The position numbers and the translations under genes are program-made. A stretch of 64,000 nt of DNA from Burkholderiales bacterium (lineage in GTDB: Bacteria; Pseudomonadota; Gammaproteobacteria; Burkholderiales; Usitatibacteraceae). The notes under the pieces were generated by a model. The model made no database searches. It had not been told where the DNA came from and was given only the letters and a program-made list of their open reading frames with translations. The DNA is taken from positions 7,843 through 71,842 of the forward strand of contig JAYTVA010000062.1 in the NCBI GenBank assembly GCA_043744255.1, in the 5' to 3' direction. Positions 6,950 to 46,395 of this stretch are shown here, one piece after another. Within the stretch, counting starts at the first letter, position 1. Each line of letters opens with the position of its first letter.

Positions 6950-7078
6950 CTGCCAAAGCGGGGTGGCCGCTTGGCACTCGCATATCCGTTCGAGCGCGAT
7001 CAATCGTGGCGATTGAACGTGTGGCGAGCCTACGTGGATGAAGGCCGGAGCGTCCGGCTAATCGACGAGGAGCGAGAA

Positions 7079-11376: not shown

Positions 11377-11377
11377 G

Positions 11378-12682: not shown

Positions 12683-12745
12683 AGCAGTAAATTTTTAAAC
12701 CATCGGGAAGACACCCGATAGAAAGGTATTGTTGGGAGAACATTG

Positions 12746-15700
12746 ATGGCTGTGAAAGGTGGATTTAGAGAGGCAGATTTTCAAGATGGGATTTTCGTTC
12801 CATTTTTGACATCAACACCCGACAGAGGACTCGTATGGATCAAGGGTGATCCGATGCGGATGTCGCAGAGAGATCGAGAGCGATGGATTTGCTCCGATGA
12901 TTTGTTGTATTTCCTGCGTGAAGGAAACGAAAATAATCGAAGTGCGTTCGAAGATTTGCTGAAGCAATACCCCGGCGAGTCCGATTTACTCGAGGACTTC
13001 GTTGCGCAAGCCTTGCTGCCCAAGCTTTCGTCTTCTACCAATGCCTCACGTGTGCTTCGTGAAACGATCGGATTTAAAGGGTATCAATTCACCCTTTGGA
13101 ATTCAGCGCCCAAGGCCGGTATGGCCCAATCATTGATCGACGATTTTTCGCGCAACCGCGGCCGACTTTTTACTGAGCTTAGCTTTGAGAGAACGTTTCC
13201 CAATGCTGGCAGCCGATTCAATCGGAGGCCTGACGCGACCTTTTTTGTCAACGGGCTCTACCTGGGCGCCGCTGAACTCAAAACGAATCAAACCGGCCAG
13301 TCTGCCGCCGTCAACGGGCGCAAAAAGATTGCCCATGACTTGGTAGAGCTCGCAGCCATGGCGTTGAGGGAGGCTAGATCACTTTGGACAAAATCGAGCG
13401 CGGCTCCATGGCCAGGTTATGCCAGTGACAGGTTGCCGGCTGCGGTTCGCAACAAGATCAACATGGACTGCGCGGTCTACCTCAAAGCCTGCCATGTCGT
13501 CTCTGTCGATATGGGGGCGTTGTTCATTACGGCCGATCTCGAGTGGGTGGTCCAAGAAGTTGACAGGGTGCTATCCGGTAAGAATGAAATTGTCGAGCTT
13601 AATCGTCTGCCTGAGCAAATTATCGGCAAGATCAGTCGAGCACCTGAAATCATGGGTATGACACCGTCAGAAACCATAGCGGAGCACTTGGAGAGCATCT
13701 ATTCACTTCGAGACGGTGTGGACCGCGATGCCTTTTACTTCAACCAAACATGGTCGCCAAATTCGAGCAACAAGCAAGTCGAGCCGTTGAAGCCACGCCC
13801 TGCGCAGCGCATGATGCTTCACCGCACCGTCAAGCGCGTTCGGGAGCTTTATCTTGACGAGAGCAAGCCTAAGATTTGCGAAGCGGACATCAGGCGCGAG
13901 CTTACAGACCTATCTCAGGGGCTCTCTGTCAAAGAAATTAACGAGATCGTCGAAGAAAGCATGAAATTCAAGAATGGAGCCAAGAGCCATTCTGTGTTGC
14001 TTCAAGGCGCGGCGGGTCTCGGCAAGACCTACCTGATCGTTTGGCTAGCACAAGCCCTCTATGAGATGGGCGACCTCAAAGCGCCGACCTACCCGTATCA
14101 GCCGCTGTTCGATTTGATCGTGCTTCTGACTGACCGCACGGAGCTTAGGCACAATATCGCCAAGGATGCAGCCAACCTCGGTTCCACCAGCAAGATCATC
14201 GAAGAGGCCGAGACGTTTGCCGACTTGCGACGCGTCGTCGAAGCAGGACAAAACCGCATCGTCGTGGTGAACATCCAGAAGTTTGCGTCACTGAGCAAGC
14301 TGGCCAATGACGACCCCAAGTTATCTGCTTTGCTAAAAAGCAAGCGCGTGGCGGTCATCATTGACGAGGTTCACCGTAGCCAAGGTGGGGTAATGCACGA
14401 CAACACGCTTGAACTATTTAATGACTGGAATAACCTAACTCCTAATAACAATAGGCGTAATTTAATCATTGGTTTGACGGCCACACCCAAAGGCGAGGCA
14501 CTCGCCAGCTTTGGCGAATGGCGCAGGCCCGTCGCCCCAGGCGACCGCTACCGCTGGGCTCCATTTGCGGCCTACTCGATGGCACAAGCCATCCGCGATG
14601 GGGTAGTTCTCAACCCGATCCAGAGCGTCTTCAAATACACCGATGAACTTGTGTTTGATCTTGGGCGGCTCCAGTCGGAGGTGGACGCGAAGGGTCTGGG
14701 CGCGAGCTCGATAAAAGCACCGAGCGCTGATTCAGTGTATGAAAATCCAACGAGGCAGAAGCTTGTCGCTGAAAAAATAGCGGGAGTGTTCGTGTCGAAG
14801 ACCATGATGGCTATCCGCCGACGCGGACTTCTTGTCGGTGAGGGCAAAGCCATGGTGGCATGTTCTTCGATCAAGGCTGCCATCGGTATGCAGGCCGCCA
14901 TCAAAGAGGCCATGCAGGCATTGGCGCTCGATCCTGGCTACAAGGACCGATCAGCCCACATCGCAGCCTGTCCAGTGCTGATCCTTTACAGCGACAAGCA
15001 AGGTGAGGTTTCCTGTGCTCAGCTCAACGGTGGAAAGGGCCAAACGGCGACCCTCGCTGAGTTTAGACGCGAGGGTGTCGAGGACAAGGACGAGGCAGGA
15101 AAGCTGCGCTGCCGCAACGCCATCATCGTCGTGGTGGACATGCTTCTCACGGGTTTTGACGAAAAGACGCTCCACACTTTGTTCATCGATCGAAGTCTTG
15201 ACGAAGTCGCTCTATTCCAAGCTGCATGCAGAATCAACCGCACGAACAAAAACAAAAGCGACTGCCTGGTCGTCGATTTTTCGCGCAACGGTGTCGTTTC
15301 CAAAGGCTTGCCAGGAGTATTCGCCGAATACGGCGGCCTAACTGTGTCTAATCTTGATGCAATGCATATGAACGAGAAGATGGATGCTGCATGGAGGGCA
15401 TTCTTTGGCGATAAGGACATCGGCGAACATTTCCGCACATGGAAAGCCACCATGTCGGGTGGCAAAGATCATCATGGCGCCGTCAAGCTTTCTGACTGGC
15501 TAGATCAACTCGTCACGGCTGACAAGTCGAGGGCATTGATGCTTAAAAAGGCTGCGTCAGCTTGGATTGGCTGTCGTGACAAGCTCACAGCTCTGCTTGA
15601 CTTTGATCGGCAGGGGCTCGAAAAGCATAAGGACAAGAGGCAAGTTTCGTTTGCCGAACAGGTGGTCAAGCACTTGGCGTCCAAGGGCAAGGCCGAAGGC

Positions 15701-16219
15701 GAGGATGTCGAGGTGTTTTTCGATGTGGTCCAGGTAGAGCAGACCGAGACTTTTGAGCTCGATGTGCACGGGGAATCTGGCAAGGATCAGAATCATCAAG
15801 GAACGCGGGAATCGTCAGCCTTGACTATGGGGCTTGCCATTTCGGACATTGAGTCATCCATCGAGATCATCGATATTCTGAACGTGCTTGGCCTTGAAGA
15901 AGCCAAGAAGGCTATGGCCATTCAGATGTTAAAAGACTTTGTCGATGGGCTCTTCGCCGAGATCGCTGCGTGTGGCGAAAAGAGCGATCGCGTTGGAAAT
16001 TCCGGTTTTTATCGTAAGGCCCTTGCCGCGTGGCTTGCCGGGAAGTCCGATTTCCCATGGGATGAGCGCCTAGCCGAATTCGTAAAGCTATTTAATAAGG
16101 CGAGGTCGAGCGCAAAGTTTGTTGGAAGCGACTTCGCCCGCATTGCGCTCCCAGCACTGTCTAAGCGCCCGGAGATGCTTATGGATGACTACGACCATTT
16201 TATCTCTAAACAAACTTGA
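12746..16219 (+). CDS. hsdR: Type I R-M endonuclease/translocase subunit
   Basis: N-terminal PD-(D/E)xK-like RPDATFFVNGLYLGAAELK. Helicase motif I QGAAGLGKT and motif II VIIDEVHRSQ. Downstream of hsdMS. Confidence 0.85.
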   Translation: MAVKGGFREADFQDGIFVPFLTSTPDRGLVWIKGDPMRMSQRDRERWICSDDLLYFLREGNENNRSAFEDLLKQYPGESDLLEDFVAQALLPKLSSSTNASRVLRETIGFKGYQFTLWNSAPKAGMAQSLIDDFSRNRGRLFTELSFERTFPNAGSRFNRRPDATFFVNGLYLGAAELKTNQTGQSAAVNGRKKIAHDLVELAAMALREARSLWTKSSAAPWPGYASDRLPAAVRNKINMDCAVYLKACHVVSVDMGALFITADLEWVVQEVDRVLSGKNEIVELNRLPEQIIGKISRAPEIMGMTPSETIAEHLESIYSLRDGVDRDAFYFNQTWSPNSSNKQVEPLKPRPAQRMMLHRTVKRVRELYLDESKPKICEADIRRELTDLSQGLSVKEINEIVEESMKFKNGAKSHSVLLQGAAGLGKTYLIVWLAQALYEMGDLKAPTYPYQPLFDLIVLLTDRTELRHNIAKDAANLGSTSKIIEEAETFADLRRVVEAGQNRIVVVNIQKFASLSKLANDDPKLSALLKSKRVAVIIDEVHRSQGGVMHDNTLELFNDWNNLTPNNNRRNLIIGLTATPKGEALASFGEWRRPVAPGDRYRWAPFAAYSMAQAIRDGVVLNPIQSVFKYTDELVFDLGRLQSEVDAKGLGASSIKAPSADSVYENPTRQKLVAEKIAGVFVSKTMMAIRRRGLLVGEGKAMVACSSIKAAIGMQAAIKEAMQALALDPGYKDRSAHIAACPVLILYSDKQGEVSCAQLNGGKGQTATLAEFRREGVEDKDEAGKLRCRNAIIVVVDMLLTGFDEKTLHTLFIDRSLDEVALFQAACRINRTNKNKSDCLVVDFSRNGVVSKGLPGVFAEYGGLTVSNLDAMHMNEKMDAAWRAFFGDKDIGEHFRTWKATMSGGKDHHGAVKLSDWLDQLVTADKSRALMLKKAASAWIGCRDKLTALLDFDRQGLEKHKDKRQVSFAEQVVKHLASKGKAEGEDVEVFFDVVQVEQTETFELDVHGESGKDQNHQGTRESSALTMGLAISDIESSIEIIDILNVLGLEEAKKAMAIQMLKDFVDGLFAEIAACGEKSDRVGNSGFYRKALAAWLAGKSDFPWDERLAEFVKLFNKARSSAKFVGSDFARIALPALSKRPEMLMDDYDHFISKQT

Positions 16220-16900: not shown

Positions 16901-17866
16901 TTGCTTCGCCGACGGGCGGGAGGCCCGAGAAAGGGGCTTTTGGCCAGCACATTGGATGTTTCGCAGAACCAGCGCGAGCGACTCGCGTTTTTGGAGCTGC
17001 GCGCGTTCTTCACAGGTGAGCTTCGCAGGGGAGACATCGAGGCGCGGTTCGGCATCAAGCCAGCAGCGGCGTCCCGCGACCTGAGTCTGTATAGGGAAGT
17101 CGCGCCCCACAACCTCGACTACGACCAGGCCTCGCGCTGCTACCGGCCGAGCTCCTCCTTCAAGCCCTTCAATGAATTTCACCCTGAGCGCGTGCTCGCG
17201 TGGTTCTTGCAAGGCTTTGGCGATGGGCTAGACCTTGGTTTGAAGCAAGCGGCACCGTGCGAAGGTCCCGGCCAACTCGTGCGGCCCGACATGGAGGTGC
17301 TAGGCGCCATCACCCGATCCATGTGTGCGAAGAAGGCTCTTCGCGTGAGTTATCTGTCGCTGTCGTCAGGTCCAAAGAATCGTGAGATCGTGCCTGTGGC
17401 GTTAGCCGACAACGGGCTGCGTTGGCATGTGCGCTCTTTTGATCGCGAACGCGGGCGGTTCAATGACTTCGTCTTGACTCGCATTGCGAAGGCTCATGAG
17501 ATAGAGGGAGACGTGGCCGAAACCGAGCTGCTAACTGCCGACGAGCAGTGGGCGCGGATGGTGGACATGGAGCTGGTGGCTCACCCTGGCATCAAGCAGC
17601 CCAAGGCGGTCGAGGCAGATTACGGATTGACCGAGGGCGTCTTGAAGGTCAAAGCGCGCGCGGCTCTTGCGGGTTACGTGCTCCGGCGCTGGTCAGTCGA
17701 TTCAAGCCTGCATCACAGACTTGATCCATCCTCACATCACCTTTGGCTGCGCAACCCTCAGGCGCTCTATGGCGTCGAAAGTGCCGCTTTGGCGCCAGGC
17801 TTTGAGGCCGACATTGCCGCGACTGCCTACGCGGCCGGAAGTAATAAATCAGGGGACAAAAAATGA
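16901..17866 (+). CDS. WYL-domain transcriptional regulator (BrxR/CapW-like)
   Basis: N-terminal wHTH-like [44 protein letters not shown] core [32 protein letters not shown]. The stop overlaps the helicase ATG (ATGA at 17863-17866). The start is TTG, or possibly internal. Confidence 0.75.
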
Positions 17867-20800: not shown

Positions 20801-21384
20801 CGTTGGAAAACGTCAGGCGCACGATTGACGAGCTGACCGTCCGGCTCGAAACGCGCACCAAGAGCCTGCAAGGCATGCGGCATGTGGTCTCTGGCATGCC
20901 GGTGGTGGTTGGCGGCGCATTGGTGATACCCGCAGGTCTGATCGCGATGAAAAGAGGCGAAGCCGAAGGCCCAACGTGGTCTGCCGATGCCCAAGCCCGC
21001 GCCCGTGTCGAGCGGGTCGCCATGGCTGCCGTTCGCAAAGCCGAAGAGGCTAGGGGGCACCAGATCATCGACGTGTCCGCTGAGAAGTGCGGTTGGGACT
21101 TGACTGCCATTGTTCCCGTCGATGAAGGCAAGCTTCCGCAAGCCCGCCACATTGAAGTCAAGGGGCGATCAAAAGGCCAATCGACCATCACCGTCACCCG
21201 CAACGAAATTCTCTACGGACTCAACCAAGCCGATAAGTTCATCTTGGCCATTGTGATCGTCGATGGTGACGACCATGAAGGCCCCCATTACGTTCGCAAC
21301 CCATTCACGCAAGAGCCTGATTGGGCGGTGACCAGTATCAATTTGGACCTCGCGTCCTTGCTCGACAGGGCGGAATCAATATGA
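17863..21384 (+). CDS. SNF2/DEAD-like superfamily 2 helicase with a C-terminal DUF3883-type (restriction-endonuclease-like) domain
   Basis: Motifs [24 protein letters not shown] and [11 protein letters not shown]. The C-terminal CGWDLTA...HIEVKGRS...[22 protein letters not shown] resembles DUF3883. Confidence 0.85.
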
Positions 21385-24236
21385 CACCAATAAAAACACC
21401 GAAGAAACTGATCGAAGTGGCGTTGCCATTGGACGATATAAACGTAGCTGCCGGCCGTGAAAAATCAATAAGATTCGGGCATCCATCGACTCTACATTTA
21501 TGGTGGGCTAGGCGGCCATTAGCCGCAGCAAGAGCAGTGATCTTTGCTCAAATGGTGAACGATCCAGGATATGAGCGAAACCTCGGAAGAGGTGTCAATA
21601 AAGAGAAGGCAAAAGTTGAGCGCGAGCGATTATTCGAGATCATTCGCAAGCTTGTGATTTGGGAAAACACTAACAACGTAGCGTTATTTAAGGAAGCGCA
21701 CGAAGAAATCCGTAAGAGTTGGGTTGAAACTTGCGAATTAAACAAAAATCATCCACTCGCTACTGATCTATTCAATCCAGCAAAAATTCCGGGCCTCCAC
21801 GATCCGTTCGCCGGAGGGGGGTCTATACCTTTGGAAGCCCAGAGGCTTGGGCTGGAAAGCCATGCGTCTGACTTAAACCCTGTTGCAGTTTTGATCAATA
21901 AGGCAATGATTGAAATTCCTCCTAGATTTAACGGGCGAGTGCCAGTAGGTCCGATCCCTAGCGCAGAAAAGCAATCCAAAATAGAACAGGAGTGGTCTGG
22001 AGCTAAAGGGCTAGCAGAAGACGTAGTTCGTTATGGGGCTTGGATGCGAGAAGCAGTCTATGACCGAATTGGTCACTTTTATCCGACCATAAAGTTACCG
22101 AAAAAATATGGCGGAGGCGACGCGACAGTTATCGCGTGGCTATGGGCCAGAACCGTTAAGAGTCCTAACCCTGCTTTTTCTCACGTAGATGTCCCACTCT
22201 CGTCTTCATTTATTTTGTCGAAAAAAGCTGGGAAGGAGATTTATCTTTGTCCAGTAATCAACAATGATAAATATCATTTCGAAGTAATTTCCGGTATCCC
22301 CCCGCTGAGTGCCAGTAGTGGGACGAAGCTGGCGCGCGGCGCGAACTTTCGGTGCCTACTTTCAAATTCACCTATCGAACCGAAATACATCAAGTCGGAA
22401 GGCGTCGCTGGTCGTATGGGTGCCCGACTAATGGCCGTCGTAGCAGAAAGCACCTCTGGCAGGGTTTACGTTGAAGCTAATCAAGAGATGGAGTCGATTG
22501 CCTTAGCCGCAAAGCCCGAATGGAAGCCTGAAACCAAATTGGCAGATGACCCAAGAGCTCTTTGGACGCCAGCATACGGTTTGACTACCTTTGGCGATTT
22601 GTTTACTTCACGTCAGCTTCTGACTCTGACGACCTTCTCGGACATGATCCAAGTCGTGCGGACAAAAGTAAAAGAAGACGCTCTCAGCGCGAGCTGGGTT
22701 GGGGACGATCGAGGCTTAGCGGCAGGAGGTTCCGGTGCGTCGGCATATTCTGACGCTATCGCAGTTTACCTAGGAATTGCTGTCGATAAAACGACTGATT
22801 ACAACAGCAGTCTGGTTGCGTGGAGTCCAACTAGAGATCAATTAAAGACAACTTTCTCACGTCAAGGTTTACCCATGATTTGGGACTATGCAGAGACAAA
22901 TCCGTTTGCCAATGCTGCGGGAGATTTGAATATTTCGGCCCAAGGCATTGCAAGATCAATGCTTGGTCTTCCTGCAACAGGAGTTGCGTTTGTATCTCAG
23001 GTAAACGCCCAAGCTCAAAATATATCAAGTGGGAAAGTAATTTCAACAGACCCACCGTATTACGACAACATTGGCTACGCGGATCTTTCGGATTTTTTTT
23101 ATGTATGGCTTAGGAAGGCGTTACGACCGATTTACCCGGATTTATTTTCAACGATGGCGGTTCCGAAGGTGGAGGAGTTGGTTGCAACTCCTTATCGCCA
23201 CGGAAGTAAGGCCGAAGCTGAAGCTTTCTTTTTGAGCGGTATGACTGAAGCCATGCATCGACTTGCTGAACAGGCTAACCCTTCGTATCCCGCGACAATT
23301 TACTATGCATTCAAGCAGTCGGACACCACGGATGTGGGAACCGGAAATACTGGTTGGGAAACGTTTCTTGAGGCAGTTTTGCGAGCAGGCTTCTCCATTA
23401 CTGGGACGTGGCCGATGAGAACAGAGCGCGACGCTCGCTCAATAGGTATCGGAACAAATGCATTAGCGTCGAGCATTATTCTTGTCTGTCGCCAAAGGTC
23501 TCTGGATGCCCCTACTGCTTCAAGGCGCGACTTTCTCCGTGAGTTAAGAGATGAATTGGCCGATGCTGTGGAAGTAATGATCGGAGGTGCTGAAGGTGTT
23601 TCCCCCGTGGCACCCGTTGATCTCGCTCAAGCGGTTATAGGCCCAGGCATGGCGATTTTCTCGAAGTATTCCTCTGTATTAGAGGCTGATGGCAGTCATA
23701 TGACAGTTCACACGGCCTTGATGCTGATTAATCGAATGTTGACCGACGGCGTCGACGAATTTGATGCGAATACTCAATTTTGTCTAAGCTGGTTCGATGA
23801 GCAAGGTTGGGCTTCTGGTGAGTTTGGTAAAGCGGATGTCCTTGCAAGAGCAAAGGGAACCTCTGTTGACGGAGTAAGGGAGTCGGGCGTAGTTGAGGCA
23901 GGTGCTGGTCGCGTTCGCTTGTTGAAGCCTATCGACTATTCGGATGATTGGTCACCTGGGCGAGACAACACCACGCCTGTCTGGGAGGCCCTGCATCAGT
24001 TAATCCGAGCACTTCGAGACCAAGGAGAGTCGGCATCTGGTTCGTTGTTGGCCGGGATGCCGCAAATTGCTGAGCCCATTCGAAATCTGGCTTACCGCCT
24101 GTATACGCTCTGCGAGCGCAAGGGATGGGCCGACGATGCGCGAGCCTACAACGAGTTGATCACATCATGGACTGGGATCGAGGCTGCTTCGCATGAGAAG
24201 GGCCATCTCGGCTCGCAGGCCAAGTTCGATATTTAG
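21381..24236 (+). CDS. DUF1156-family DNA methyltransferase (COG1743-like)
   Basis: The N-terminal [12 protein letters not shown]...[21 protein letters not shown] is the DUF1156 signature. AdoMet motif DPFAGGGS and catalytic [21 protein letters not shown]. The ATG overlaps the helicase stop (ATGA 21381-21384). Confidence 0.85.
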
Positions 24237-24248
24237 GGAGATATAAAT

Positions 24249-27146
24249 ATGGCACTCAAACCTTGGCGCGAAATCGCCGTTCCCCACGAAGATGTCTTGA
24301 AGGGCACCTTCCAGCAAGCCGAGTTCGCCGCTGACATCTCTAAGGTGCACCAGGGAATCGCGACGCCTGAGTATCAGGATGCGGCTCTGTTTTTCCAACG
24401 GACCTTCATCACCGAAGGCATGCGCCTCTTGCTCGACTCGGTCGTCAAACGGCTCGCGGGCAAGGGAGGTGATCCCGTCGTGCAATTGCAAACAGCCTTC
24501 GGTGGCGGCAAGACCCACACACTTCTTGCTGTCTATCACCTTGCCAAGGGATTGACGCCTGCTAGCAAGATGCAGGGCATCCCGCCGATCTTGGAAGCGG
24601 CGGGCATCACAGAACTTCCGAAGGCTCGCGTGGCGGTGCTTGATGGAGTGGACTTGTTGGACCTTGCGAGCAAGCCCCGTGTTCATGGCAAGACCACCGT
24701 CAAGACGATTTGGGGAGAGTTGGCTTGGCAGTTGGGTGGCGAGGCGGCTTTCGCCAAGCTGATGGAGGCTGACCGTGATGGCACGGCTCCCGGCAAGAGC
24801 GTGATGGCCGACATCATCGGTGGCAGCGCGCCTTGCATCATCTTGATGGACGAGCTTGTTCGCTACGTCTCGCAGTTCGAAGAGGGTAAAACCTTGTCGG
24901 GCGGCACCTACGACACCCAGCTCTCATTCATCCAGTCGCTCACCGAAGCCTTGAAGGCCGTGCCCAACGCGATCCTGCTGGCCTCGCTGCCGTTCTCGGA
25001 CAGGGAAGCTGGCAGCCAGCAAGGCGTGAAGGCTTTAAGGGCCTTAGAGCACTACTTCGGGCGGGTGCAGGCGTTGTGGAAGCCCGTAGCGACCGAAGAA
25101 GCGTTCGAGATCGTCCGCAGGCGGCTGTTTGCCGATGTCACGGACCGACTCGCAGCCGAAGAAGTCTGCCGAGCGTATGCCGACTACTACGCGGCGAATG
25201 CGGGCGACCTACCCCCTGAGGCGCAGGGAAGCGGCTACTTGGATCGGTTGAAGCACGCTTACCCAATCCACCCCGAAGTTTTCGACCGGCTCTATGAGGA
25301 CTGGTCGTCGCTGGACAACTTCCAGCGCACGCGCGGCGTCTTGAAGCTCATGGCCAAAGTTATCCATCGCCTTTGGACCACGGGCAACAACGATTTATTG
25401 ATTCAGCCGGGCAGCCTGCCCTTGTTCGATTCCGACACACGTAACGAGGCGATCTACTACCTGCCTCAGGGTTGGGACCCGGTGCTAGAACGCGACATTG
25501 ATGGCGATCGAGCGGCGACCACTGAGCTCGATAACGCACGCCCACTGTTCGGCTCGATCCACGCATGCCGCCGTATTGCGCGGGCGGTGTTCTTAGGCTC
25601 GGCCCCAGACGCGGGAGCCGTTGGAGGTGCGAAACATCATCGAGGCATCGAGCTGGAACGCGTTCTCTTGGGATGCGTTCAGCCTGGCCAAGTGATTGGG
25701 CACTACAAGGATGGCGTGCGGGCCTTGGTGGACCGACTTCAATACCTCAACAGTGCTAACAACCGCTTTTGGTTTGACACCCGGCCTAACCTACGACGCG
25801 AGATGGAGGACCGTAAGCGCCGCTTTGATCTGCGCGAAGACGTGTATCCCTTCATCAAGGAAAAGCTGCGGTTTGCCAACGGCACCTTTGGTGGTGTGCA
25901 TGTGTTTACGCCATCGTCGGACGTGCCGGATGACTGGCAATTACGCCTCGTGGTGTTGCCGCCCGAGGCCACGTTCAGCAAGGGCGCGCAGTCGCCCGCA
26001 ATTGAGGCGGCCACCGCGATCCTGAAAGGGCGGGGAGATCAGCCTCGCCAGAAGCAAAACCGTTTGATCTTCTTGGCTCCAGACACCGACAGCATCTCGC
26101 GCCTCAAAGACCAAGTGACCTCCTCGCTTGCATGGAAGTCCATCGTCGATGACGTGAAGGAAGGTCGGCTTAACCTCGATGGACACCAGACCAAGCAGGC
26201 ATCGGCCAGCCTCGACCAAGCAAGCGAAGCACTGGGCCGCATGGTGCGCGAGACCTTCAAGTGGCTTTTGGCCCCATTGCAGGAGGCCAAGCCCGGCAAG
26301 GGTATCGGCGAGATTCAGTGGGACCACTTCCAGATCAATCCTGCTTCGGTGAACCGCACCGAAGAAATAGAGAAGGTGCTCAAAGAGCACGAGCTGCTGA
26401 TCACCGAGTGGGCCCCGATCCACTTGACCAAGATGCTGCAAACGTGGTTTTGGAAGGACGACGCGACTGCTGTCAGCGCGTTGGAGACGTGGCAAAAGAC
26501 GTGCTGCTACCTCTACCTGCCGAGGCTTCGCGATGCCGACACACTGCGGGCCACCATCGCGGCGGGCGTATCTTCACGCGACTTCTTCGGCATTGCTTAT
26601 GGCCGCGAAGAGGGCCCATTTCAAGGTTTCAATTTCGCGCAGAGCACTACCCCCATCCTTGACGACTCGCTTCTACTGATCGAGCCCAAGGTTTCGGTAG
26701 CGTTCGCCGCCGAGCTTGCGGCGGAGGCGGCAGAGAGAGAGGCTCAGACCAAGAATAAGGAAACGGGCGGAGCCAGCGCGGGTGGCGGCTCTAACGGCGA
26801 AACCTCAGGCGGGACTTCGACCACTACAACTGGCACCGGCGGCGGCTCCATGGGCTCCACAAGCGGGGGGGCGACGGGCGCTGGATCGAGCCCCGGCACG
26901 GGTAGCGGCGCCACAAAGAAAACGATGTTCTTCGGCTCCGTGGAGTTGAACCCGAATCAGGCCAAGGTGCAGTTTTCCGACGTGGCCGAGGAAGTTCTCA
27001 TGCTTCTCAATAAGCCCGGCGTGAAGCTGCGCATCGCCATCGAGATCGAGGCGGAGCTGCCAAGTGGATTTGACGATGGCATACAGCGCGCTGTGCGCGA
27101 GAACTGCGATCAGTTGAAGTTCAAGAACCGATCGTTCGAAGACTGA
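24249..27146 (+). CDS. DUF499-family P-loop ATPase (BrxC/PglY-like, COG1483-like)
   Basis: Walker [17 protein letters not shown] and Walker [11 protein letters not shown] long helical body is followed by a G/S/T-rich linker and a roughly 75-aa C-terminal domain. RBS gggag lies 12 nt after the MTase stop. Confidence 0.85.
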
Positions 27147-27562: not shown

Positions 27563-29530
27563 ATGAAGCTCACAAAAGTCCGCGTCCAGAACTATCGGTC
27601 CGTAGAAGACAGCGAAGAATTTGAGATTGACGGCCTCACTTGCCTAGTTGGCAAGAACGAAGCCGGAAAGACAGCGCTCCTCAGTGCCATACGCGGCCTC
27701 AAGCCAGCCCAGCCGTTCGAATTCGACGAAGTTATCGATTACCCAAGGCGTTTTTCGACACGGTTCGACGACCGACACCCTGGCGGGTCAGCAGAGGTTA
27801 TTCGGACGTGGTGGCGACTTGAAGGTCCGGACAATGATGCGGTTGAAAAGCGCTTTGGCCCAGGGGTTCTCAAAGGCGATACCTTTCAGACCCACTTTGG
27901 ATTTAGGTATGACGACGACCGCCGCATCTGGGAAATTGAAATCGATAGCGGAAAAGTTCTGGAAAATATGCTGAGCAAGCATGCCCTCGACGCAACCGAA
28001 CGCAATGCCCTTCACGGCGTGAGCGATGGGCTTGCTGCGGACAAGGCCCTTTCGGGGCTGACCGCGCGAACGCCCAAGCAGGAACTCCTCTTGCAGGATA
28101 TTAAAAAGTGCAGGGAATCGAGCTTCGTCAAGGCAGTGCTCGACATCCTATCTGCAAGGCAACCCAAGTTCTTTTTCACGTCGCACTTCGAGCGCATGTC
28201 GGGCATGGTCTCGATTGAGAAATTGCAGCTAGATAGACAGCAAAACGCGGTTTCGGTTGGGGACAAAATTTTTCTCGATTTCCTCGAATACGCGGGAACC
28301 ACTCTTGAAGACTTGAAGAACGTGGACCGACGCGAGGAGCTCAAGGCCAAATGCGAGGCGGCAAGTAACGAAATAACTGAGGAAATCTTCCAGTTTTGGA
28401 GCCAGAACAATGCATTAGAAGTAGTTATCGAGATCGATAACGCTAAACCCAAAGACCCCGTTCCTTTCAATACCGGCATGGTGGCCGACATACGGATTAA
28501 GAACACCAATCACAAGGCTACGCTTCCGTTGTCGGAGCGCAGCGCGGGCTTTGTATGGTTCTTCTCGTTTCTTGCTCAGTTCAAGCAGCTAAAGAAAACA
28601 CCCGGAAATACCAACGCGATCATTTTGCTGGATGAGCCTGGCCTAACCTTGCATGGAAAGGCGCAAGGCGATTTGCTGCGCTATATCGTCGAGCGGCTGC
28701 TGCCTGACCATCAAGTGATCTTCACCACGCATTCGCCATTTATGGTGCCTATGGATCGGCTCGCCGATGTCCGCATCGTGGAGGACGTAATTATTGAGAA
28801 GCCTGGCCAGCGCACAGAGGTCAAAGGAACGAAGGTGCGTTCGGACGTTCTTGAGGTTAGCGACGACACGCTTTTCCCTCTCCAAGGCGCGCTAGGCTAT
28901 GAAGTGACACAGTCACTTTTTATCGGCGCGAACACATGGCTTGTCGAAGGACCGTCGGACATTCTTTATTTGAAAGTCGTCTCCCAAGCGCTCACTAAGC
29001 GAAGCCGAGTAGGCATTGATCCGAAATGGACGTTATGCCCATCGGGCGGCATCGATAAGCTCGCGCCATTCGTGAGGCTTTTTGGCGGCAATCGTATCAA
29101 TATGGCGGTGCTCTCAGACATTGCGAACGGTGACAAGAATAAGATTGAAAATTTGAAGAAGGCCGACATATTAAAAGCGGGGCACTTCTATACGTGCGCG
29201 GATTTCACTGCGCAGAGTGAAGCGGATGTCGAAGATCTCTTCGAGGCCGACCTGTTCGTCGAGATGCTCAATGGGGCATACAAGCCGCCTGTTGCCAATG
29301 TCGTGGTCAAGGAAGCTTTGATGGTTGCGGCTCCCACCCCGCGTATCGTCAAGAAGGCGGAGGCATTGTTCAAAATGATGCCTGCGTCTGTCGCTGAGTT
29401 CGATCACTTCGGAGCATCTCGTTGGCTTTTGGAAAATCCGTCACTTTTAGATGCCGACACGCCTGCCGTCAATGCAACTCTGGACCGGTTTGAGCAGATT
29501 TTCAAGGCATTCAATCAACTGTTGGGATAA
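27563..29530 (+). CDS. OLD-family-like ABC-type ATPase fused to a TOPRIM-like C-terminal domain
   Basis: VRVQNYRSVEDSEEFEIDGLTCLVGKNEAGKT (Walker A), LSERSAGFVWFFSF (signature-like), AIILLDEPGLTLH (Walker B) and FTTHSPFM (H-loop). These are followed by WLVEGPSDILYL and AVLSDIANGD, a TOPRIM-like Glu and acidic cluster. Strong RBS aagaggagg. Confidence 0.7.
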   Translation: MKLTKVRVQNYRSVEDSEEFEIDGLTCLVGKNEAGKTALLSAIRGLKPAQPFEFDEVIDYPRRFSTRFDDRHPGGSAEVIRTWWRLEGPDNDAVEKRFGPGVLKGDTFQTHFGFRYDDDRRIWEIEIDSGKVLENMLSKHALDATERNALHGVSDGLAADKALSGLTARTPKQELLLQDIKKCRESSFVKAVLDILSARQPKFFFTSHFERMSGMVSIEKLQLDRQQNAVSVGDKIFLDFLEYAGTTLEDLKNVDRREELKAKCEAASNEITEEIFQFWSQNNALEVVIEIDNAKPKDPVPFNTGMVADIRIKNTNHKATLPLSERSAGFVWFFSFLAQFKQLKKTPGNTNAIILLDEPGLTLHGKAQGDLLRYIVERLLPDHQVIFTTHSPFMVPMDRLADVRIVEDVIIEKPGQRTEVKGTKVRSDVLEVSDDTLFPLQGALGYEVTQSLFIGANTWLVEGPSDILYLKVVSQALTKRSRVGIDPKWTLCPSGGIDKLAPFVRLFGGNRINMAVLSDIANGDKNKIENLKKADILKAGHFYTCADFTAQSEADVEDLFEADLFVEMLNGAYKPPVANVVVKEALMVAAPTPRIVKKAEALFKMMPASVAEFDHFGASRWLLENPSLLDADTPAVNATLDRFEQIFKAFNQLLG

Positions 29531-41741: not shown

Positions 41742-42076
41742 CCACCATTAAAATCCTCCCCCACGAATCGCTCTGCCCCAAGGGTCTCGAATTCGACGCG
41801 CCCAACGGCGAAACGCTCTGCGACGCGCTGCTGCGCAACCACATCGAAATCGAACACGCTTGCGAAAAATCTTGCGCGTGTACGACCTGCCACGTCATCG
41901 TGCGCGAAGGCATTGCTTCACTCGACGAGGCCGCCGAAAAAGAAGAAGACATGCTCGATATGGCGTGGGGTTTGACGCCGTTATCGCGGCTTTCCTGCCA
42001 AGCCAAGGTGCGCGATCAAGCGCTCGTGATTGAAATCCCGAAATACACGATCAATCATGCACGGGAGACCCACTGA
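41738..42076 (+). CDS. fdx: [2Fe-2S] ferredoxin of the ISC system
   Basis: [14 protein letters not shown] ... LSCQ cysteine pattern. The start overlaps the hscA stop. Confidence 0.95.
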
Positions 42077-42276
42077 TGACGCTCAAATGGACGGACACGC
42101 TGGAGATCGCGATGCGGCTTCTGGACGCGCACCCCGAAGTAGATCCGAAAACGATTCGCTTTACCGACTTGCGCGCGTGGGTGATGGCGTTGCCGGAGTT
42201 TGGCGATGACCCCACGCACTCGGGCGAAAAAATTCTCGAAGCCATTCAAATGGCGTGGATTGACGAGGCGGAGTAA
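42076..42276 (+). CDS. iscX: Fe-S assembly protein IscX
   Basis: [30 protein letters not shown], 66 aa, the last gene of the isc operon. Confidence 0.9.
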   Translation: MTLKWTDTLEIAMRLLDAHPEVDPKTIRFTDLRAWVMALPEFGDDPTHSGEKILEAIQMAWIDEAE

Positions 42277-42290
42277 CGGAACAGCGGACG

Positions 42291-42424
42291 AAAAAAAGGG
42301 TGGTCTTTCGACCACCCCTCAAGGCGCACTCTCGAGTATCCACAGAGGAGAACCTTCAGTGATTTGGGGACCTATCCATCACACCGAAGCGCCCAGGGAG
42401 GAGGGGCGTTCCGCGAATACTCGT
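42291..42424 (-). ncRNA. Candidate sigma54-dependent small RNA (about 130 nt) with CU-rich loops
   Basis: Bounded by a sigma54 promoter (42433-42449) and a minus-strand terminator, gggtggtc-gaaa-gaccaccc plus ttttttt (42291-42317). The predicted stem gaacgccc/gggcg(c)ttc presents the loop CUCCUCCCU. No ORF is present. Confidence 0.45.
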
Positions 42425-42432
42425 AGCTATTC

Positions 42433-42449
42433 TAGCAGATGGCGTGCCA
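42433..42449 (-). promoter_or_regulatory. Sigma54 (-24/-12) promoter
   Basis: The minus strand reads TGGCACGccatCTGCT against the consensus TGGCACG-N4-TTGCW. GG-N10-GC spacing is exact. Confidence 0.55.
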
Positions 42450-42479
42450 GAAAAAATATATCTATACAAAACAAAGGCT

Positions 42480-42606
42480 TGTCAACAATTGTCGCAAAAA
42501 TCTAGCGCCTAGGTTACTCACCTACTGTCTGGTTGTGGCGACATAAACGGTAATAATTTTTAACCTATTGATTCGATAGACTAATTGTTGTCTCTGTTCG
42601 GCGACA
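42480..42606. promoter_or_regulatory. Putative enhancer (UAS): two perfect and one degenerate TGTC-N10-GACA boxes
   Basis: TGTCtggttgtggcGACA (42526-42543) and TGTCtctgttcggcGACA (42589-42606) are 63 bp apart. A degenerate TGTCaacaattgtcGCAA lies at 42480-42497. An A/T-rich tract (42450-42477) sits between the boxes and the promoter. Confidence 0.45.
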
Positions 42607-42689
42607 TTCGCATCTAGCATTCCAACACATTTGCGGCACTTTTTGTGTCCGCGCAGTCGCATGCGCCGACCGACACCCCAGTCAGCACC

Positions 42690-44099
42690 TCAATCCTGAT
42701 GCGGTTTGAAATGCGCCGCTTCCAGCCCATGCCGCTGGAGCAATTTGTAGAATTCGGTGCGGTTACGCCGCGCCAGCTTGGCCGCCTGCGTCACGTTGCC
42801 TTGGGTGAGCTTGAGAATACGCGTCAGATAGTCGTATTCAAAGCGGCGCCGCGCATCCTCAAACGAATCGACGGTCTGCATCCCAAGCTGCATTGCCTGC
42901 TCGACAGTTTTCGGCGCGACGATGTCGGTACTGGTGAGCGCGACTGCCTGTTCGGCCACGTTAAAAAGCTGGCGAATATTGCCCGGCCAAGGTGCTGCGA
43001 TCAGCATTTCCAAGGCATCCGGTGAAAACGCGTTCACGTTCTTCTCGTAACGCTTCGCGAGCACTCTTAGAAAGTGGTTGAGCAGTAAAGGAATGTCTTC
43101 GCGGCGGTCGCGCAACGGTGGCAGCAACAGCGTTACGACGTTCAGCCGATAGAACAAATCCTCGCGGAACGCGCCAGTTGCCTTGGCCTCCACCAAATCG
43201 CGATGGCTGGCTGAAATCACGCGCACGTCTACCGGCACGGTCTTGGTTGAGCCGACTGGACGCACCTCGCGCGCTTCCAATACGCGCAACAGTTTTACTT
43301 GAAGTGATAACGGCATGTCGCCAATTTCATCGAGCAGCAACGTGCCACCGTTGGCTTCCATGAATAGACCCGCATGATCGCTGGTCGCGCCAGTGAAGGC
43401 ACCCTTCTTGTGGCCGAACAGCTCAGACTCCAACAGCGCTTCGGGAATGGCACCGCAGTTAATTGCGACGAATGGCTTGTCCGCGCGCCGACTCGCGCGG
43501 TGAATTGCCTGCGCCAGCACCTCTTTGCCGGTGCCGCTTTCACCCTGGATTAACACGCTCGCCTCTCCCTGCGCCACGCGCTCTGCGCGCAGCAACAAGT
43601 CTTCCATCAGCGGGCTCTTGGTGATGATGTCGGAACGCCAGGCGCTGGCCGCATTCTGCGAGTCGCGGGTACGCGAGGCGGTGCCATGCAGCGACAATGC
43701 GCGCTCAATTTGTTGCAGTAGCTGGTGCGCATCGTAGGGCTTGGTGATGTAGCCGAAAACGCCCTGCTGGGTGGCGGCTACGGCGTCCGGAATGGTGCCA
43801 TGGGCGGTGAGCATGATGACCGGCAGGCCGGAGTGGCGACGCTCAATTTCGTGGAATAGCGCCATGCCGTCGAGACCCGCCATACGCAAATCCGTGACCA
43901 CCAGATCGGGTCGCTCGGCGGCGATCATCGACAACGCTTGTTGGCCGCTACTGGCAGTCATCACCGCGTAGCCGCTCGCTTTCAGGCGAATCGCCAACAG
44001 CTTCAACAGATCTGGATCATCGTCTACCAGCAGCAAATTGCCGTTTTGCATGCGTGGCGGCGTAATACTCGGGGGGTGAAGCACTGCGGCCATGTTCAT
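42690..44099 (-). CDS. Sigma54-dependent response regulator (NtrC family; GlrR/QseF-like by context)
   Basis: Receiver LLLVDDDPDLL..VVTDLRMAG. AAA+ GESGTGKE, GAFTGA and ESELFGH. Fis-type HTH GNVTQAAKLARRNRTEFYKLL. RBS ggag precedes ATG 44099. Confidence 0.9.
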   Translation of the reverse strand: MNMAAVLHPPSITPPRMQNGNLLLVDDDPDLLKLLAIRLKASGYAVMTASSGQQALSMIAAERPDLVVTDLRMAGLDGMALFHEIERRHSGLPVIMLTAHGTIPDAVAATQQGVFGYITKPYDAHQLLQQIERALSLHGTASRTRDSQNAASAWRSDIITKSPLMEDLLLRAERVAQGEASVLIQGESGTGKEVLAQAIHRASRRADKPFVAINCGAIPEALLESELFGHKKGAFTGATSDHAGLFMEANGGTLLLDEIGDMPLSLQVKLLRVLEAREVRPVGSTKTVPVDVRVISASHRDLVEAKATGAFREDLFYRLNVVTLLLPPLRDRREDIPLLLNHFLRVLAKRYEKNVNAFSPDALEMLIAAPWPGNIRQLFNVAEQAVALTSTDIVAPKTVEQAMQLGMQTVDSFEDARRRFEYDYLTRILKLTQGNVTQAAKLARRNRTEFYKLLQRHGLEAAHFKPHQD

Positions 44100-44111
44100 A
44101 CACAAACTCCA

Positions 44112-44762
44112 CTATTTGGGCGGCACATCGCTCCGATCATTGGCACGAGGCGGCGCACTACGAAAAATCGATTTATACGCGGCGAGCTGTTTTTCCAGCT
44201 CTTCTATTTTTAACCGCAAGTTCCGTGCCTCTGTTTGTGCCACGGTCAGTTCATCGCGCCGGGCACCTTGGGTTTTCACCTGCGTTTCGCGCGCCAACTC
44301 GGCTTGGCGCTTGCGTACTTGCACCAACGATTGAATTAGCACCGCCAACGCGCGCACCTCAGGGTCTGGCGAGGTCGCGGTGACGGTGCCGTTGAACGCA
44401 ATCGGGTCAACCAACGCGATGATTTCGTCGTCGTTATTCGCTAGGGCGTTGGTCGGCGCGGGCGGAGCGAGTGACAGCCACACTGCCAACCGCACCCGGT
44501 TCATATCGCTGCGATCCTGGGTGTAGTCGGTGCGGGCACGATCACGCTCGGCGATGAATTCGGCTTGCGGAAGTTTGCGCGCTTGCAAAATCAGCGTCAT
44601 CAGTTGATCGACCGTAGACGTGGCCTGCACGGTGATGACCCGTGGCGCTGGCTTGGGCAGGGTCTCGACGCGCTTACTGTCAAGCGCGCAGGCCGACAGC
44701 AGCAGCGCCAGTGTTGTAGCGAGCCAAATTTGTACAAGTTGGAATGGTGAGTGCGCGCGCAT
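44112..44762 (-). CDS. Lipoprotein with a coiled-coil C-terminus (QseG/YfhG-like by position)
   Basis: Signal peptide plus lipobox MRAHSPFQLVQIWLATTLALLLSAC. The C-terminal ELARETQVKTQGARRDELTVAQTEARNLRLKIEELEKQLAAYK is coiled-coil-like. Sits between the kinase and regulator genes. Confidence 0.6.
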   Translation of the reverse strand: MRAHSPFQLVQIWLATTLALLLSACALDSKRVETLPKPAPRVITVQATSTVDQLMTLILQARKLPQAEFIAERDRARTDYTQDRSDMNRVRLAVWLSLAPPAPTNALANNDDEIIALVDPIAFNGTVTATSPDPEVRALAVLIQSLVQVRKRQAELARETQVKTQGARRDELTVAQTEARNLRLKIEELEKQLAAYKSIFRSAPPRANDRSDVPPK

Positions 44763-44805: not shown

Positions 44806-46395
44806 CTACCCTTCCACTTTTGGCTGCTTCGGCACCACCACCCGCATGCGCGCGCCGTCAGCGGCAATCGAGCTCACCGAGCCCTGGTGCATCTCAACGT
44901 AATCACGCACAATCGCGAGCCCAAGCCCGGTGCCCTTGGTGCCGGTAGCGACCGCCGATTGACTGCGATAAAACGGATCAAATATTTTTTCGCGCTCTTC
45001 TGGCGGTATGCCGGGTCCCTCGTCAATTACTTCCATGATCGCCTGATCGTGGCGTTTGCCCAAGCGCACGACGATCGTTCCGCCGACCGGCGAATACTTC
45101 ACGGCATTCGACAGCAAATTATCTATTACCACGCGTAGCTTGCCTGCGTCACCCATGATGCTGGTCTTCTCGCAGTCACGCTGAATCTTCAACGACTTTG
45201 CCGTCACCGCAATTTTCTGCGCATCGATCACTTCATCAATCAAATCTTTGAGCTGCAAAGGCTTTAGTTCTAGTGCCGTCTTTTGCGCGATGCGCGAAGC
45301 CGATTGTGATTGCGAATAGGTGAGCAAATCCTGAATCAGGCGTTCTAGGGTCAGTGAGTTTTGTTTCAGGATGCGGGTGACTTCGCGTTGCTCCTCGGTC
45401 AGCTTGCCGACCACCTCATCGCCCAACAAATCAGAGCCCTCACGCAAGGCGGTAAGCGGCGTTTTGAGTTCGTGCGACACGTGCTGAAAAAATCGCGTTT
45501 TTTGATCCTCAAGTGAAATCAGGCGTTGGCGTAACCAGTCGAGCTGTTCGCCCAGCTGGCGAATATCGCGCGGCCCAGAAATCCGGATAGATCGTGCCAG
45601 CTTGCCTTGACCGAGTCGATTGATCGCATCATCGAGTTCCCGAATCGGTCGCGCCAACGCGTACGCGAAACCGGCGATCAGGAACACCGCCACCGGTACC
45701 ATGCCAACGGTCTGCCAATAAGCCTGATTTTTCGAGGTCTCTGCGTAGGCGCGCAATTCTTCGGTATCACGCTCGATCATCTTGTCGCCAAGTTGCACCA
45801 AGGTCTGCACGCGCTTGCCCAATTGTACGAAATCAACCACCAGTTTTTGTTCCAACGGCTTGTCGATTTGCCGCGAGACCGGGTCACGTGCGCCCAGTGC
45901 GGCATGTACTGACTGCTCGGCTTTACCGATGGCGTCCGTCGTGCTGCGCATTTCTGCGGGCAACGGCAGTTTCGCCATTTGCTGCAACACGCCCTGAAAA
46001 TCTTCGCGCGCGTGGCGATAGCTCTCCAGCATATCAAGCTCAGGAGAAACCGCGTACACGCGAGCGGAGCGCTCCATCGTTTGGATCAGCCCGGCCAGCT
46101 TGCGGGCATTTTCTTTCGCCTGCGAGGCATTGCGAACCGCTCGCTCGCTCTTGTTCAGCAAACGCTCCATCGACAGCGCACTGGAAACCAGACCCGCGAC
46201 CAGCGGCAAGGAAACAATGATGAAGCCGGCCAGCAATAGCGCCAAAAACGTAATCGGAAAGCGCAGATGAATGCGGTGCGAGCCTGCATCGTCGTCACGG
46301 CGCGCGGGCGAATTGGGGACGGCAGCGTCTGCCGGGGTCGACGCGGGAGGCGCGGGGAGGGGTGCAGACACTGGAGCGGATGCGGGCGCGGACAT
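44806..46395 (-). CDS. Sensor histidine kinase (GlrK/QseE-like by context)
   Basis: TM segments and a HAMP-like region. H-box FFQHVSHELKTPLTAL, N-box LLSNAVKYSP, and G-boxes DEGPGIP / GTGLGLAIV. An alternative start lies at 46488. Confidence 0.85.
   Translation of the reverse strand: MSAPASAPVSAPLPAPPASTPADAAVPNSPARRDDDAGSHRIHLRFPITFLALLLAGFIIVSLPLVAGLVSSALSMERLLNKSERAVRNASQAKENARKLAGLIQTMERSARVYAVSPELDMLESYRHAREDFQGVLQQMAKLPLPAEMRSTTDAIGKAEQSVHAALGARDPVSRQIDKPLEQKLVVDFVQLGKRVQTLVQLGDKMIERDTEELRAYAETSKNQAYWQTVGMVPVAVFLIAGFAYALARPIRELDDAINRLGQGKLARSIRISGPRDIRQLGEQLDWLRQRLISLEDQKTRFFQHVSHELKTPLTALREGSDLLGDEVVGKLTEEQREVTRILKQNSLTLERLIQDLLTYSQSQSASRIAQKTALELKPLQLKDLIDEVIDAQKIAVTAKSLKIQRDCEKTSIMGDAGKLRVVIDNLLSNAVKYSPVGGTIVVRLGKRHDQAIMEVIDEGPGIPPEEREKIFDPFYRSQSAVATGTKGTGLGLAIVRDYVEMHQGSVSSIAADGARMRVVVPKQPKVEG

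Follow-up and report, generated by a model that had tools for sequence, protein, structure and literature searches.

What is encoded in the gap that follows the gene for a GlrR-type, sigma54-dependent response regulator in a bacterium of the family Usitatibacteraceae (Burkholderiales; NCBI GenBank assembly GCA_043744255.1)? The stretch of DNA analysed here, called the window throughout, comprises 64,000 nucleotides (nt) of contig JAYTVA010000062.1 (positions 7,843 to 71,842 of the forward strand), and an earlier examination of its letters, the sequence-only reading, had proposed that positions 42291-42606 carry an enhancer-dependent small RNA (sRNA) beside a cluster resembling glrK-qseG-glrR. 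That interpretation is supported as far as computation reaches. From its motifs, their conservation and the predicted RNA fold, the locus very probably encodes a structured sRNA driven by GlrR and sigma54. We consider it likely that this is a stand-alone gene for a trans-acting sRNA which is activated in this way and acts through two invariant anti-Shine-Dalgarno (anti-SD) stretches; for base-pairing by these stretches as the mode of action, taken by itself, the balance stands about even.

QseEF, or GlrKR, is an envelope-signalling system linked to virulence, and its best-documented direct outputs are GlmY (together with GlmZ in some species) and rpoE, all in Enterobacteriaceae. No literature report was found of a GlrR/QseF-dependent sRNA outside the Enterobacterales, and the locus described here offers a testable output of QseEGF beyond the enteric bacteria, in one betaproteobacterial lineage. 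If confirmed, the regulatory module would prove to be of greater age and portability than its RNA, a clear case of sRNA replacement beneath a conserved circuit; a clade with almost no RNA biology would also gain a new sRNA family, for which a covariance model is ready. The Usitatibacteraceae include the named genus Usitatibacter, and should one of its cultivable relatives in the family carry the RNA, the locus may be open to experiment.

The promoter and its conservation

All features of the sRNA locus lie on the minus strand and are given in window coordinates (Table 1). The near-consensus sigma54 element (42449-42434) and the two perfect TGTC-N10-GACA palindromes (42526-42543 and 42589-42606) reported by the sequence-only reading are where it had placed them; the distal and proximal boxes are 63 nt apart, and an A/T-rich tract lies between the proximal box and the sigma54 element. 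Neither motif is unusual by itself in 64 kb, the sigma54 pattern occurring once against 0.46 expected and the box twice against 0.84 expected. The window's sole copies of both are found within 175 nt, in the gap after the GlrR-type gene, a co-location whose chance we put at about 1e-6 by our own Poisson estimate. Since the motif counts alone are unremarkable, the meaning of the arrangement is decided by comparison with relatives.

These relatives were reached along three routes. The lipoprotein encoded beside the regulator has ten homologues among 5.8 billion proteins, and three of their contigs (L001-L003) carry a near-identical RNA and the same promoter. A regulator scan of species-representative genomes found at least five loci at 78-89% identity (L004-L008), annotated as metagenome-assembled genomes (MAGs) of Usitatibacteraceae, Burkholderiales or Betaproteobacteria, all of them with the RNA (the L008 copy is interrupted by the contig end). 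Scanning metagenomes with a 20-nt stretch of the RNA alone gave eight contigs, one a duplicate of L005, and in all eight the RNA is the immediate 3' neighbour of the regulator gene, on the same strand. At least 15 loci, from Usitatibacteraceae/Burkholderiales MAGs and metagenomes, carry the RNA, in every case directly 3' of the regulator gene; the set of 15 sequences used below consists of eight found through protein and seven found with the DNA pattern.

In the region preceding the RNA, the loci are essentially unalignable save for five islands (alignment A7). The first is the distal box, in which GTC...GACA is invariant in the 15 loci; the second has the invariant columns A..CA.....TT and fits the consensus for integration host factor (IHF), WATCAR-N4-TTR; the third is the proximal box; the fourth, with columns AA....T.TG.TT, fits the reverse IHF consensus and is a perfect YAANNNNTTGATW in several relatives; and the fifth, TGGCA-N7-TGC, is again invariant in 15 loci. 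The IHF consensus was taken from PMC3045617, and the sites in this locus are IHF-like by sequence. The distances from the box starts to TGGCA, 157 and 94 nt, are the same in almost every member. The sequence-only reading had made conservation of the promoter and boxes in relatives one test of its proposal, and for the promoter and both perfect boxes this is what the 15 loci display; the further, degenerate box that it had marked at 42480-42497 is not conserved as a box, and it is the second IHF-like site (YAA-N4-TTGWT, 42481-42469) that is conserved there instead. An invariant G, 27 nt past the T of TGGCA, opens the conserved RNA, no more than 1 nt from the start predicted from the -12 GC. Situated at 42422, this G begins the conserved helix and refines the expected 5' end from near 42423 to 42423/42422.

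Just 3' of the -12 GC, at 42428-42434, there is also an A/T-rich hexamer resembling a -10 element, which reads TAGAAT in the window and, at the same columns, TAAAAT in L005 and CATATA or TATATC in others. It is placed as is the sigma70 -10 element that overlaps the sigma54 promoter of Escherichia coli glmY (PMC3045617); our scanner found neither a matching -35 nor a sigma70 promoter on the minus strand.

A structured RNA that covaries

The 133-nt RNA folds at -60.4 kcal/mol, compared with -42.8±3.8 for shuffled sequences (z = -4.57, with 0 of 200 shuffles as good), and five divergent members fold alike individually (z from -3.2 to -7.35). Applied to a plain MAFFT alignment of the 15 sequences, RNAalifold returned a three-way junction and a terminator. 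Helix P1 (nt 1-13/77-89) closes the junction around two hairpins, P2, whose stem CGCCC/GGGCG carries a 9-nt loop, and P3 (nt 34-69); a 7-nt junction strand follows P3, and P1 is followed by a 15-nt linker and then the terminator. The latter, a stem with seven U on the minus strand (42318-42291), is present as the sequence-only reading had described it and has 11 pairs and a loop of 4 according to the pattern scanner.

Covariation, one of the checks which that reading had proposed for related genomes, was found in both alignments made. Compensatory changes affect 12 of 36 pairs in the plain MAFFT alignment; in the model-fitted alignment 98.1% of cells are paired and both sides have changed in 16 of the 36 pairs, against 6.2±1.5 in a column-shuffle control (none of 500 shuffles reached 16) and 0-2 when the partner was slid by 1-3 columns. 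Every helix contains at least two covarying pairs. The P2 stem changes from G-C to A-U and from C-G to U-A, and the terminator has compensatory changes in five of its nine pairs, its stem being wholly different in L088.

The RNA is more conserved than the proteins encoded beside it: it is 82-97% identical to the window copy in nucleotides, while amino-acid identity to the window is 75-93% for the regulator, 58-78% for the kinase and 33-67% for the lipoprotein. The hairpin showing CUCCUCCCU and the second CU-rich stretch, UUCUCCUC, which the sequence-only reading had singled out, are both present. The P2 loop has the consensus YCCUCCCU, within which CCUCCCUGGG is invariant in 15 sequences; GGUUCUCCUC is kept in 14 of 15 (alignment A3), the L088 row being out of register and having the same motif. 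Neither the consensus nor any of the single-sequence folds pairs the second stretch. The linker GAGAGUGCGCCUUGA is invariant in the eight sequences found through protein, its invariance in the seven found with the DNA pattern being a consequence of the search itself, and P3 has a conserved apical loop, GGAUAGGUCC, that includes GGA.

An operon, iscR-iscSUA-hscBA-fdx-iscX, converges on the sRNA, iscX ending at 42276, 15 nt from the end of the U-tract. The convergent isc operon lies 37-80 nt after the RNA in most loci; in L001 a glycosyltransferase gene is inserted after the RNA, and the surroundings are different again in L002 and L087. The RNA has a terminator of its own at all loci.

Covariance model R1 scores 157.7 bits on the window RNA, its single copy in the window. 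Among the matches listed, the regulators that follow in similarity share no more than 62% identity (Casimicrobiaceae, Hydrogenophilales, Halomonadaceae, Alteromonas, Woeseiaceae and others), and at none of these listed loci did BLAST or the covariance model find the RNA. Nor did R1 find a homologue when run on 75 further GlrR-like loci (Halomonas, Alteromonas, Woeseiaceae, Hydrogenophilales and others); a 13-bit match in L020 was discarded, being 1.4 kb past the regulator, without the promoter and confined to the terminator. The family is so far confined to a small betaproteobacterial clade. The sequence-only reading had suspected that the RNA might be undescribed, and Rfam indeed yielded nothing at gathering score in the whole window, GlmY and GlmZ included. 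Judged by sequence and predicted structure, this is an undescribed sRNA family, and it is not a GlmY/GlmZ homologue, a cuckoo RNA or anti-hemB.

The regulator, the kinase and the lipoprotein

By sequence the regulator is an orthologue of GlrR/QseF. Aligned end to end over 446 residues, it shares 59% identity with E. coli GlrR, and the DNA-recognition stretch RNRTEFYKLL in the helix-turn-helix (HTH) is identical; it has the Pfam domains Response_reg, Sigma54_activat and AAA_lid_14, and its top NCBIfam model is GlrR (635.6 bits), followed by AtoC (425).

The kinase open reading frame (ORF) extends mechanically to 46488, and starting at the ATG at 46395 gives a protein of 529 residues, comparable with the 522-541 of relatives. 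It is 38% identical to E. coli GlrK over its cytoplasmic part (HAMP-DHp-CA). Its best match in the Protein Data Bank (PDB) is chain 9m08_C (208 bits, E 1.9e-60, residues 46-513), and the runner-up is CpxA (108 bits). The chain 9m08_C is annotated only as 'histidine kinase'. A cryo-EM complex of QseG and QseE has been described, citing only 9M06 and 9M07 (PMC12691602); since the partner chain 9m08_A is QseG and that paper reports such a complex, we infer that entry 9M08 is the QseG-QseE complex. Together, the PDB profile match, sensor domain included, and the identity to GlrK identify the kinase as a QseE/GlrK orthologue.

The evidence for homology of the lipoprotein to QseG is weak. The window protein has no Pfam match, and pairwise BLAST against QseG gave E 0.08; three of 13 family members match PF13942 (YfhG/QseG) weakly, with a best E of 3.7e-5, and hhalign aligns family and QseG with a probability of 57% (E 1.1e-4) over the C-terminal 118 columns. 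The lipoprotein profile has no PDB match, QseG chains included, and the AlphaFold model (pLDDT 74, pTM 0.50) has no Foldseek match in the PDB with E<0.45, although QseG structures are present there. We regard it as weakly QseG-like in sequence. Of the gene order proposed by the sequence-only reading, the GlrR and GlrK positions stand, on the regulator's identity to GlrR and the kinase's closest PDB relative, while the homology of the middle gene to qseG is weak. Clusters of qseE-qseG-qseF, always with qseG in the middle, are known from Gamma- and Betaproteobacteria and Acidithiobacillia (PMC12691602, 2025), and the order in the window fits them.

Elsewhere in the window, positions 1004-31046 look like an integrated mobile or defence island, whose genes are included in Table 1.

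Table 1. Features of the sRNA locus, its neighbouring genes and the putative island, in window coordinates
Feature	Position	Strand	Remarks
Sensor histidine kinase, GlrK/QseE-like	44806..46395	minus	HAMP, HisKA, HATPase_c (Pfam)
Lipoprotein in QseG position	44112..44762	minus	signal peptide with LSAC lipobox; helical, long C-terminal helix
Sigma54-dependent response regulator, GlrR/QseF orthologue by sequence	42690..44099	minus	receiver, AAA+ with GAFTGA, HTH; stop-side end at 42690, upstream neighbour of the boxes
Distal activator-binding site (predicted)	42589..42606	minus	TGTCGCCGAACAGAGACA; start 157 nt upstream of TGGCA
IHF-like site 1	42561..42573	minus	AATCAATAGGTTA (WATCAR-N4-TTR); between both boxes
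Proximal activator-binding site (predicted)	42526..42543	minus	TGTCGCCACAACCAGACA; start 94 nt upstream of TGGCA
IHF-like site 2	42469..42481	minus	CAAGCCTTTGTTT (YAA-N4-TTGWT); between proximal box and promoter
Sigma54 promoter (predicted)	42434..42449	minus	TGGCACGccatCTGCT; -24 GG / -12 GC
Predicted sRNA, ~132 nt	42291..42423	minus	fold, homologues, covariation, covariance model
Anti-SD stretch 1	42395..42403	minus	CUCCUCCCU; 9-nt loop of hairpin P2 (stem CGCCC/GGGCG)
Anti-SD stretch 2	42345..42352	minus	UUCUCCUC; junction strand P3-P1
Single-stranded linker, 15 nt, invariant	42319..42333	minus	GAGAGUGCGCCUUGA; candidate third seed or protein/RNase site
Intrinsic terminator	42291..42318	minus	GGGGTGGTC-GAAA-GACCACCC(T) + seven T
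Integrase	1004-2686
TraD/TrwB coupling protein	4616-6949
ArdC	7721-8749
Type I restriction-modification system	8983-16219
WYL protein	16901-17866
HmaA	17863-21384		complete Hma helicase-methylase-ATPase system (with HmaB, HmaC); PADLOC 1429-2045 bits
HmaB	21321-24236		as HmaA
HmaC	24249-27146		as HmaA
OLD/AriA-like ATPase	27563-29530
DUF2726 protein			last of the island, after the OLD/AriA-like ATPase

A proposed mechanism

Computation has shown the motifs with their conservation, their strict linkage to the regulator gene, covariation in the RNA, an absence of coding potential, and orthology for both the regulator and the kinase; together these suggest the following scheme. The QseE/GlrK-like kinase, probably assisted by the lipoprotein in the QseG position, would phosphorylate the GlrR/QseF orthologue encoded just upstream of the sRNA, which would then bind the two TGTCGC-N6-GCGACA sites 63 nt apart. 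IHF-type bending at the two flanking sites would carry the regulator to sigma54-RNA polymerase at TGGCAC-N5-YTGCT, and transcription would begin at about 42422/3 and end at the U7 terminator, 15 nt before convergent iscX. This transcription half of the mechanism, with its dependence on sigma54, GlrR and IHF, we infer from the promoter anatomy. In the RNA, the predicted three-way junction would display a CCUCCCU loop and keep the UUCUCCUC strand unpaired, both mimicking the 3' end of 16S ribosomal RNA; the CU-rich stretches would most likely pair, perhaps with some role for Hfq, with the Shine-Dalgarno (SD) regions of several mRNAs and so reduce their translation. The sRNA would form the post-transcriptional arm of a two-component response which, by analogy, probably concerns the cell envelope.

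Several points weigh against this scheme. Scans for targets in the window and about 150 kb of related loci identified none: apart from ordinary SD sequences, no complementarity was conserved. The three stretches that are conserved and unpaired were compared in duplex scans with the window and with the candidate starts in 15 loci, and exact 9-mer complements were searched for; only ordinary SD-like matches and scattered GC-rich noise appeared, and the target prediction advised by the sequence-only reading produced nothing conserved. The window has no gene for glmS, which that reading had suggested as a target. The simple anti-SD model does not account for the invariant 15-nt linker or the conserved P3 loop, which leaves room for a GlmZ-like or protein-binding role. 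The regulator's 635.6 bits fall below the NCBIfam equivalog cut-off of 763 for GlrR. Finally, the count of 16 covarying pairs comes from a model-fitted alignment of mutually related sequences and is somewhat inflated; the slid controls and the unfitted alignment agree with it.

The linker showed complementarity of 8-11 nt to the start of the lipoprotein gene in L001 (~6985-7015), L003 (~6920-6950) and L092 (~6590-6610), all on the minus strand; in L092 the complement, CAAGGCGCACU, is at the SD position. The other members do not have it, and in the window the match is 10 of 11 with a central mismatch, by hand alignment. Autoregulation of the lipoprotein mRNA by the linker was rejected as a general property, such complementarity ranking in the top 2-8% of background only in L001, L003 and L092 and at about the median elsewhere.

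Alternative explanations

One other explanation is that the RNA is a functional analogue of GlmY/GlmZ, controlling glmS or amino-sugar synthesis either as a decoy that binds a RapZ-like adaptor or by pairing of the linker with the glmS leader, the CU-rich stretches being secondary. The regulator family and promoter architecture shared with glmY/glmZ are in keeping with this idea (PMC3045617). So is the invariant single-stranded linker immediately before the terminator, the position that corresponds to the pairing and RNase E site of GlmZ. We nevertheless think it unlikely. GlmY and GlmZ have no anti-SD loops; their Rfam models have no match at E<=10 on 42150-42750, the GlmY model scoring 146 bits on E. 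coli glmY as a positive control, and R1 in turn does not match E. coli glmY, all of which agrees with the impression of the sequence-only reading that the RNA does not resemble them. The window contains no glmS, glmU or rapZ gene, and so no glmS leader with which the linker might pair.

The RNA might also be a protein-titrating sponge which sequesters Hfq or CsrA/RsmA in the manner of CrcZ or RsmZ. The order of sigma54 regulator gene, sigma54 promoter and sRNA is that of cbrB-crcZ in Pseudomonas, and the conserved P3 apical loop has a GGA. It is a single GGA loop, however, where Csr/Rsm sponges have many; CrcZ-type repeated A-rich motifs are lacking, 132 nt is short for a sponge, and the best-conserved unpaired stretches are CU-rich, so that we hold a sponge to be quite improbable.

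It is very improbable, in our judgement, that the region holds no independent sRNA and is a 3' untranslated region or terminator structure of the regulator operon, the leader of a downstream gene or the mRNA of a small protein. The RNA always follows the regulator gene on the same strand, and read-through could thus contribute to its expression, but a conserved sigma54 promoter with activator sites stands between the regulator stop and the RNA, which a strong terminator ends. It cannot be a leader, having its own terminator and a next gene that is convergent (iscX) or varies between loci. As to coding, the sequence-only reading had seen no ORF in between: mechanical ORFs do overlap the region (42200-42505, plus; 42055-42315 and 42161-42343, minus), but no sense-strand ORF is conserved among the 15 family sequences, and coding on either strand is excluded by paired 2-nt deletions (2+2-nt indels) in stem 3 of three members. 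A 21-codon ORF (V/M-K/R-WIGPQ...) present in some members was dismissed as a small-peptide gene, since it is absent from the window copy and six others. One antisense frame (window 42297-42422, plus), probably the same as mechanical ORF 42200-42505, is stop-free in 14 of 15 members; this openness could be read as coding, but given the stem-3 indels we judge the frame non-coding and take it to be a by-product of strong sequence conservation.

A chance coincidence of motifs without function, to which the unremarkable number of each motif singly might point, is effectively refuted by the co-location and conservation of the motifs in 15 loci, the covariation of the RNA and the regulator linkage of the contigs found by RNA alone, and its probability is virtually nil.

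Other GlrR-like loci

Box pairs followed by a sigma54 promoter also occur at other GlrR-like loci, with differing outputs. In two gammaproteobacterial MAGs (L011, 5486-6030; L021, 5355-5850) the gene for a GlrR-like regulator of 56-57% identity is followed by two perfect boxes with a spacing of 65-66 nt, a sigma54 promoter that fits the consensus and then some 300-350 nt of apparently non-coding sequence, which ends in a similar terminator (GCGCCGG...CCGGCGC and a T run). This region matches no Rfam family and has no similarity to the window RNA; it may be another GlrR-driven RNA or the mRNA of a small protein. Genes for secreted proteins stand behind boxes and sigma54 promoter in a Hydrogenophilales MAG (L016, 5420-6000, gene start 5975) and in L008 (1650-1800, minus); the former has a second sigma54-like element at 5443, ahead of a small membrane protein starting MFGWAVTFLIVAIIAGIFGF. 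A Woeseiaceae MAG (L031, 7757-8230, minus) has a c-di-GMP-I-GGC riboswitch (RF03167, 66.8 bits, 7840-7757) immediately preceded by a GlrR-type box pair and, at 8058, the sigma54 promoter TGGCACGCTAGTTGCC; this sigma54/GlrR-type promoter would feed the riboswitch. A Halomonas MAG (L018, 812-1300) has a box pair with one mismatch and 65-nt spacing and a weaker sigma54-like element (TGGCACGGCGTTGGCA at 1003); some 3 kb separate them from the regulator match, which is at 4001, and they lie upstream of it, towards the kinase side of the locus, where E. coli has glmY; the arrangement was not found in other Halomonadaceae loci.

Such sequence matches suggest a portable promoter cassette with changing cargo. 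We offer, tentatively and as a possibility that we do not favour, the wider view that the link between QseE/QseG/QseF and an adjoining sigma54-dependent sRNA is ancestral to Beta- and Gammaproteobacteria, and that the box-IHF-box-IHF-sigma54 cassette has been kept while the RNA was replaced by lineage: GlmY/GlmZ in Enterobacterales, the anti-SD RNA in Usitatibacteraceae, an RNA of about 300 nt in two gammaproteobacterial MAGs, and protein genes elsewhere. The window RNA would then be the counterpart of GlmY/GlmZ, repressing at ribosome-binding sites and controlling the synthesis of envelope precursors or envelope proteins.

Comparison with known systems

Two kinds of RNA share the CU-rich loop. 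Burkholderia RNA 7 anti-hemB (RF02837), the best sub-threshold Rfam match, likewise combines a UCUCCUCCCUGA hairpin loop with a terminator behind it; membership was rejected at 16.3 bits and E 0.35 against a gathering score of 49.5, with 62 nt inserted where the model has 20, and in a permissive 600-nt search the likeness is confined to the anti-SD hairpin loop and a generic terminator. The alphaproteobacterial cuckoo RNAs (CcsR1-4, alpha-r14/NfeR1) of Rhizobiales and Rhodobacterales consist of two to four adjacent motif hairpins without multiloops and are thought to occlude ribosome-binding sites (PMC4615179). They share with the window RNA the anti-SD motif CCUCCUCCC in a hairpin loop, exact in the window copy, and the presumed action at ribosome-binding sites. 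Their promoters differ, however, the motif varies among the relatives of the window RNA (CCCUCCC, UUCCUCCC), and a single motif hairpin within a three-way junction, together with the absence of any alpha-r14 Rfam match, led us to reject membership; the likeness is a mechanistic one.

Sigma54-dependent sRNAs encoded beside their activator gene include CrcZ after cbrB and NrsZ after ntrC in Pseudomonas, and Qrr1 beside luxO in Vibrio. The window locus resembles them in its gene for a two-component sigma54 activator, its upstream activating sequence, its -24/-12 promoter and its own terminator, and its place immediately after the regulator gene is that of crcZ and nrsZ. It differs from them in regulator family, binding site and RNA, CrcZ being a protein sponge of about 400 nt and the Qrr sRNAs having four stem-loops and another seed. 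With a predicted promoter, activator sites and terminator and a conserved structure that appears non-coding, the window RNA would join this class, to which GlmY also belongs.

The closest parallel is with glmY itself. Its E. coli promoter (L084) has three boxes, of which ABS2 and ABS3 are spaced by 63 nt, as are those of the window; Göpel et al. reported IHF-like sites on both sides of ABS3, a dispensable ABS1 and an essential IHF site 1 (PMC3045617). The window cassette corresponds to the core ABS2-IHF-ABS3-IHF-sigma54 and has the same extended half-sites, TGTCGC...GCGACA, so that, in motifs, spacing and conservation over 15 loci, it matches the combination of sigma54 promoter, TGTCN10GACA boxes and IHF-like sites of GlmY/GlmZ. 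The differences are that it has two boxes and not three, that the proximal one is 13 nt nearer the promoter, and that the sRNA lies downstream of the glrR-type gene, whereas glmY is upstream of glrK. Both systems have an orthologous regulator, a kinase of which QseE is the closest relative, an intervening lipoprotein gene and an sRNA adjoining the operon, but the RNA itself, 132 nt long, betaproteobacterial and folded into a three-way junction with anti-SD motifs, has no detectable similarity to GlmY or GlmZ in sequence or structure. With a promoter laid out like that of glmY and an unrelated RNA behind it, one sensor appears to drive different sRNAs in different lineages.

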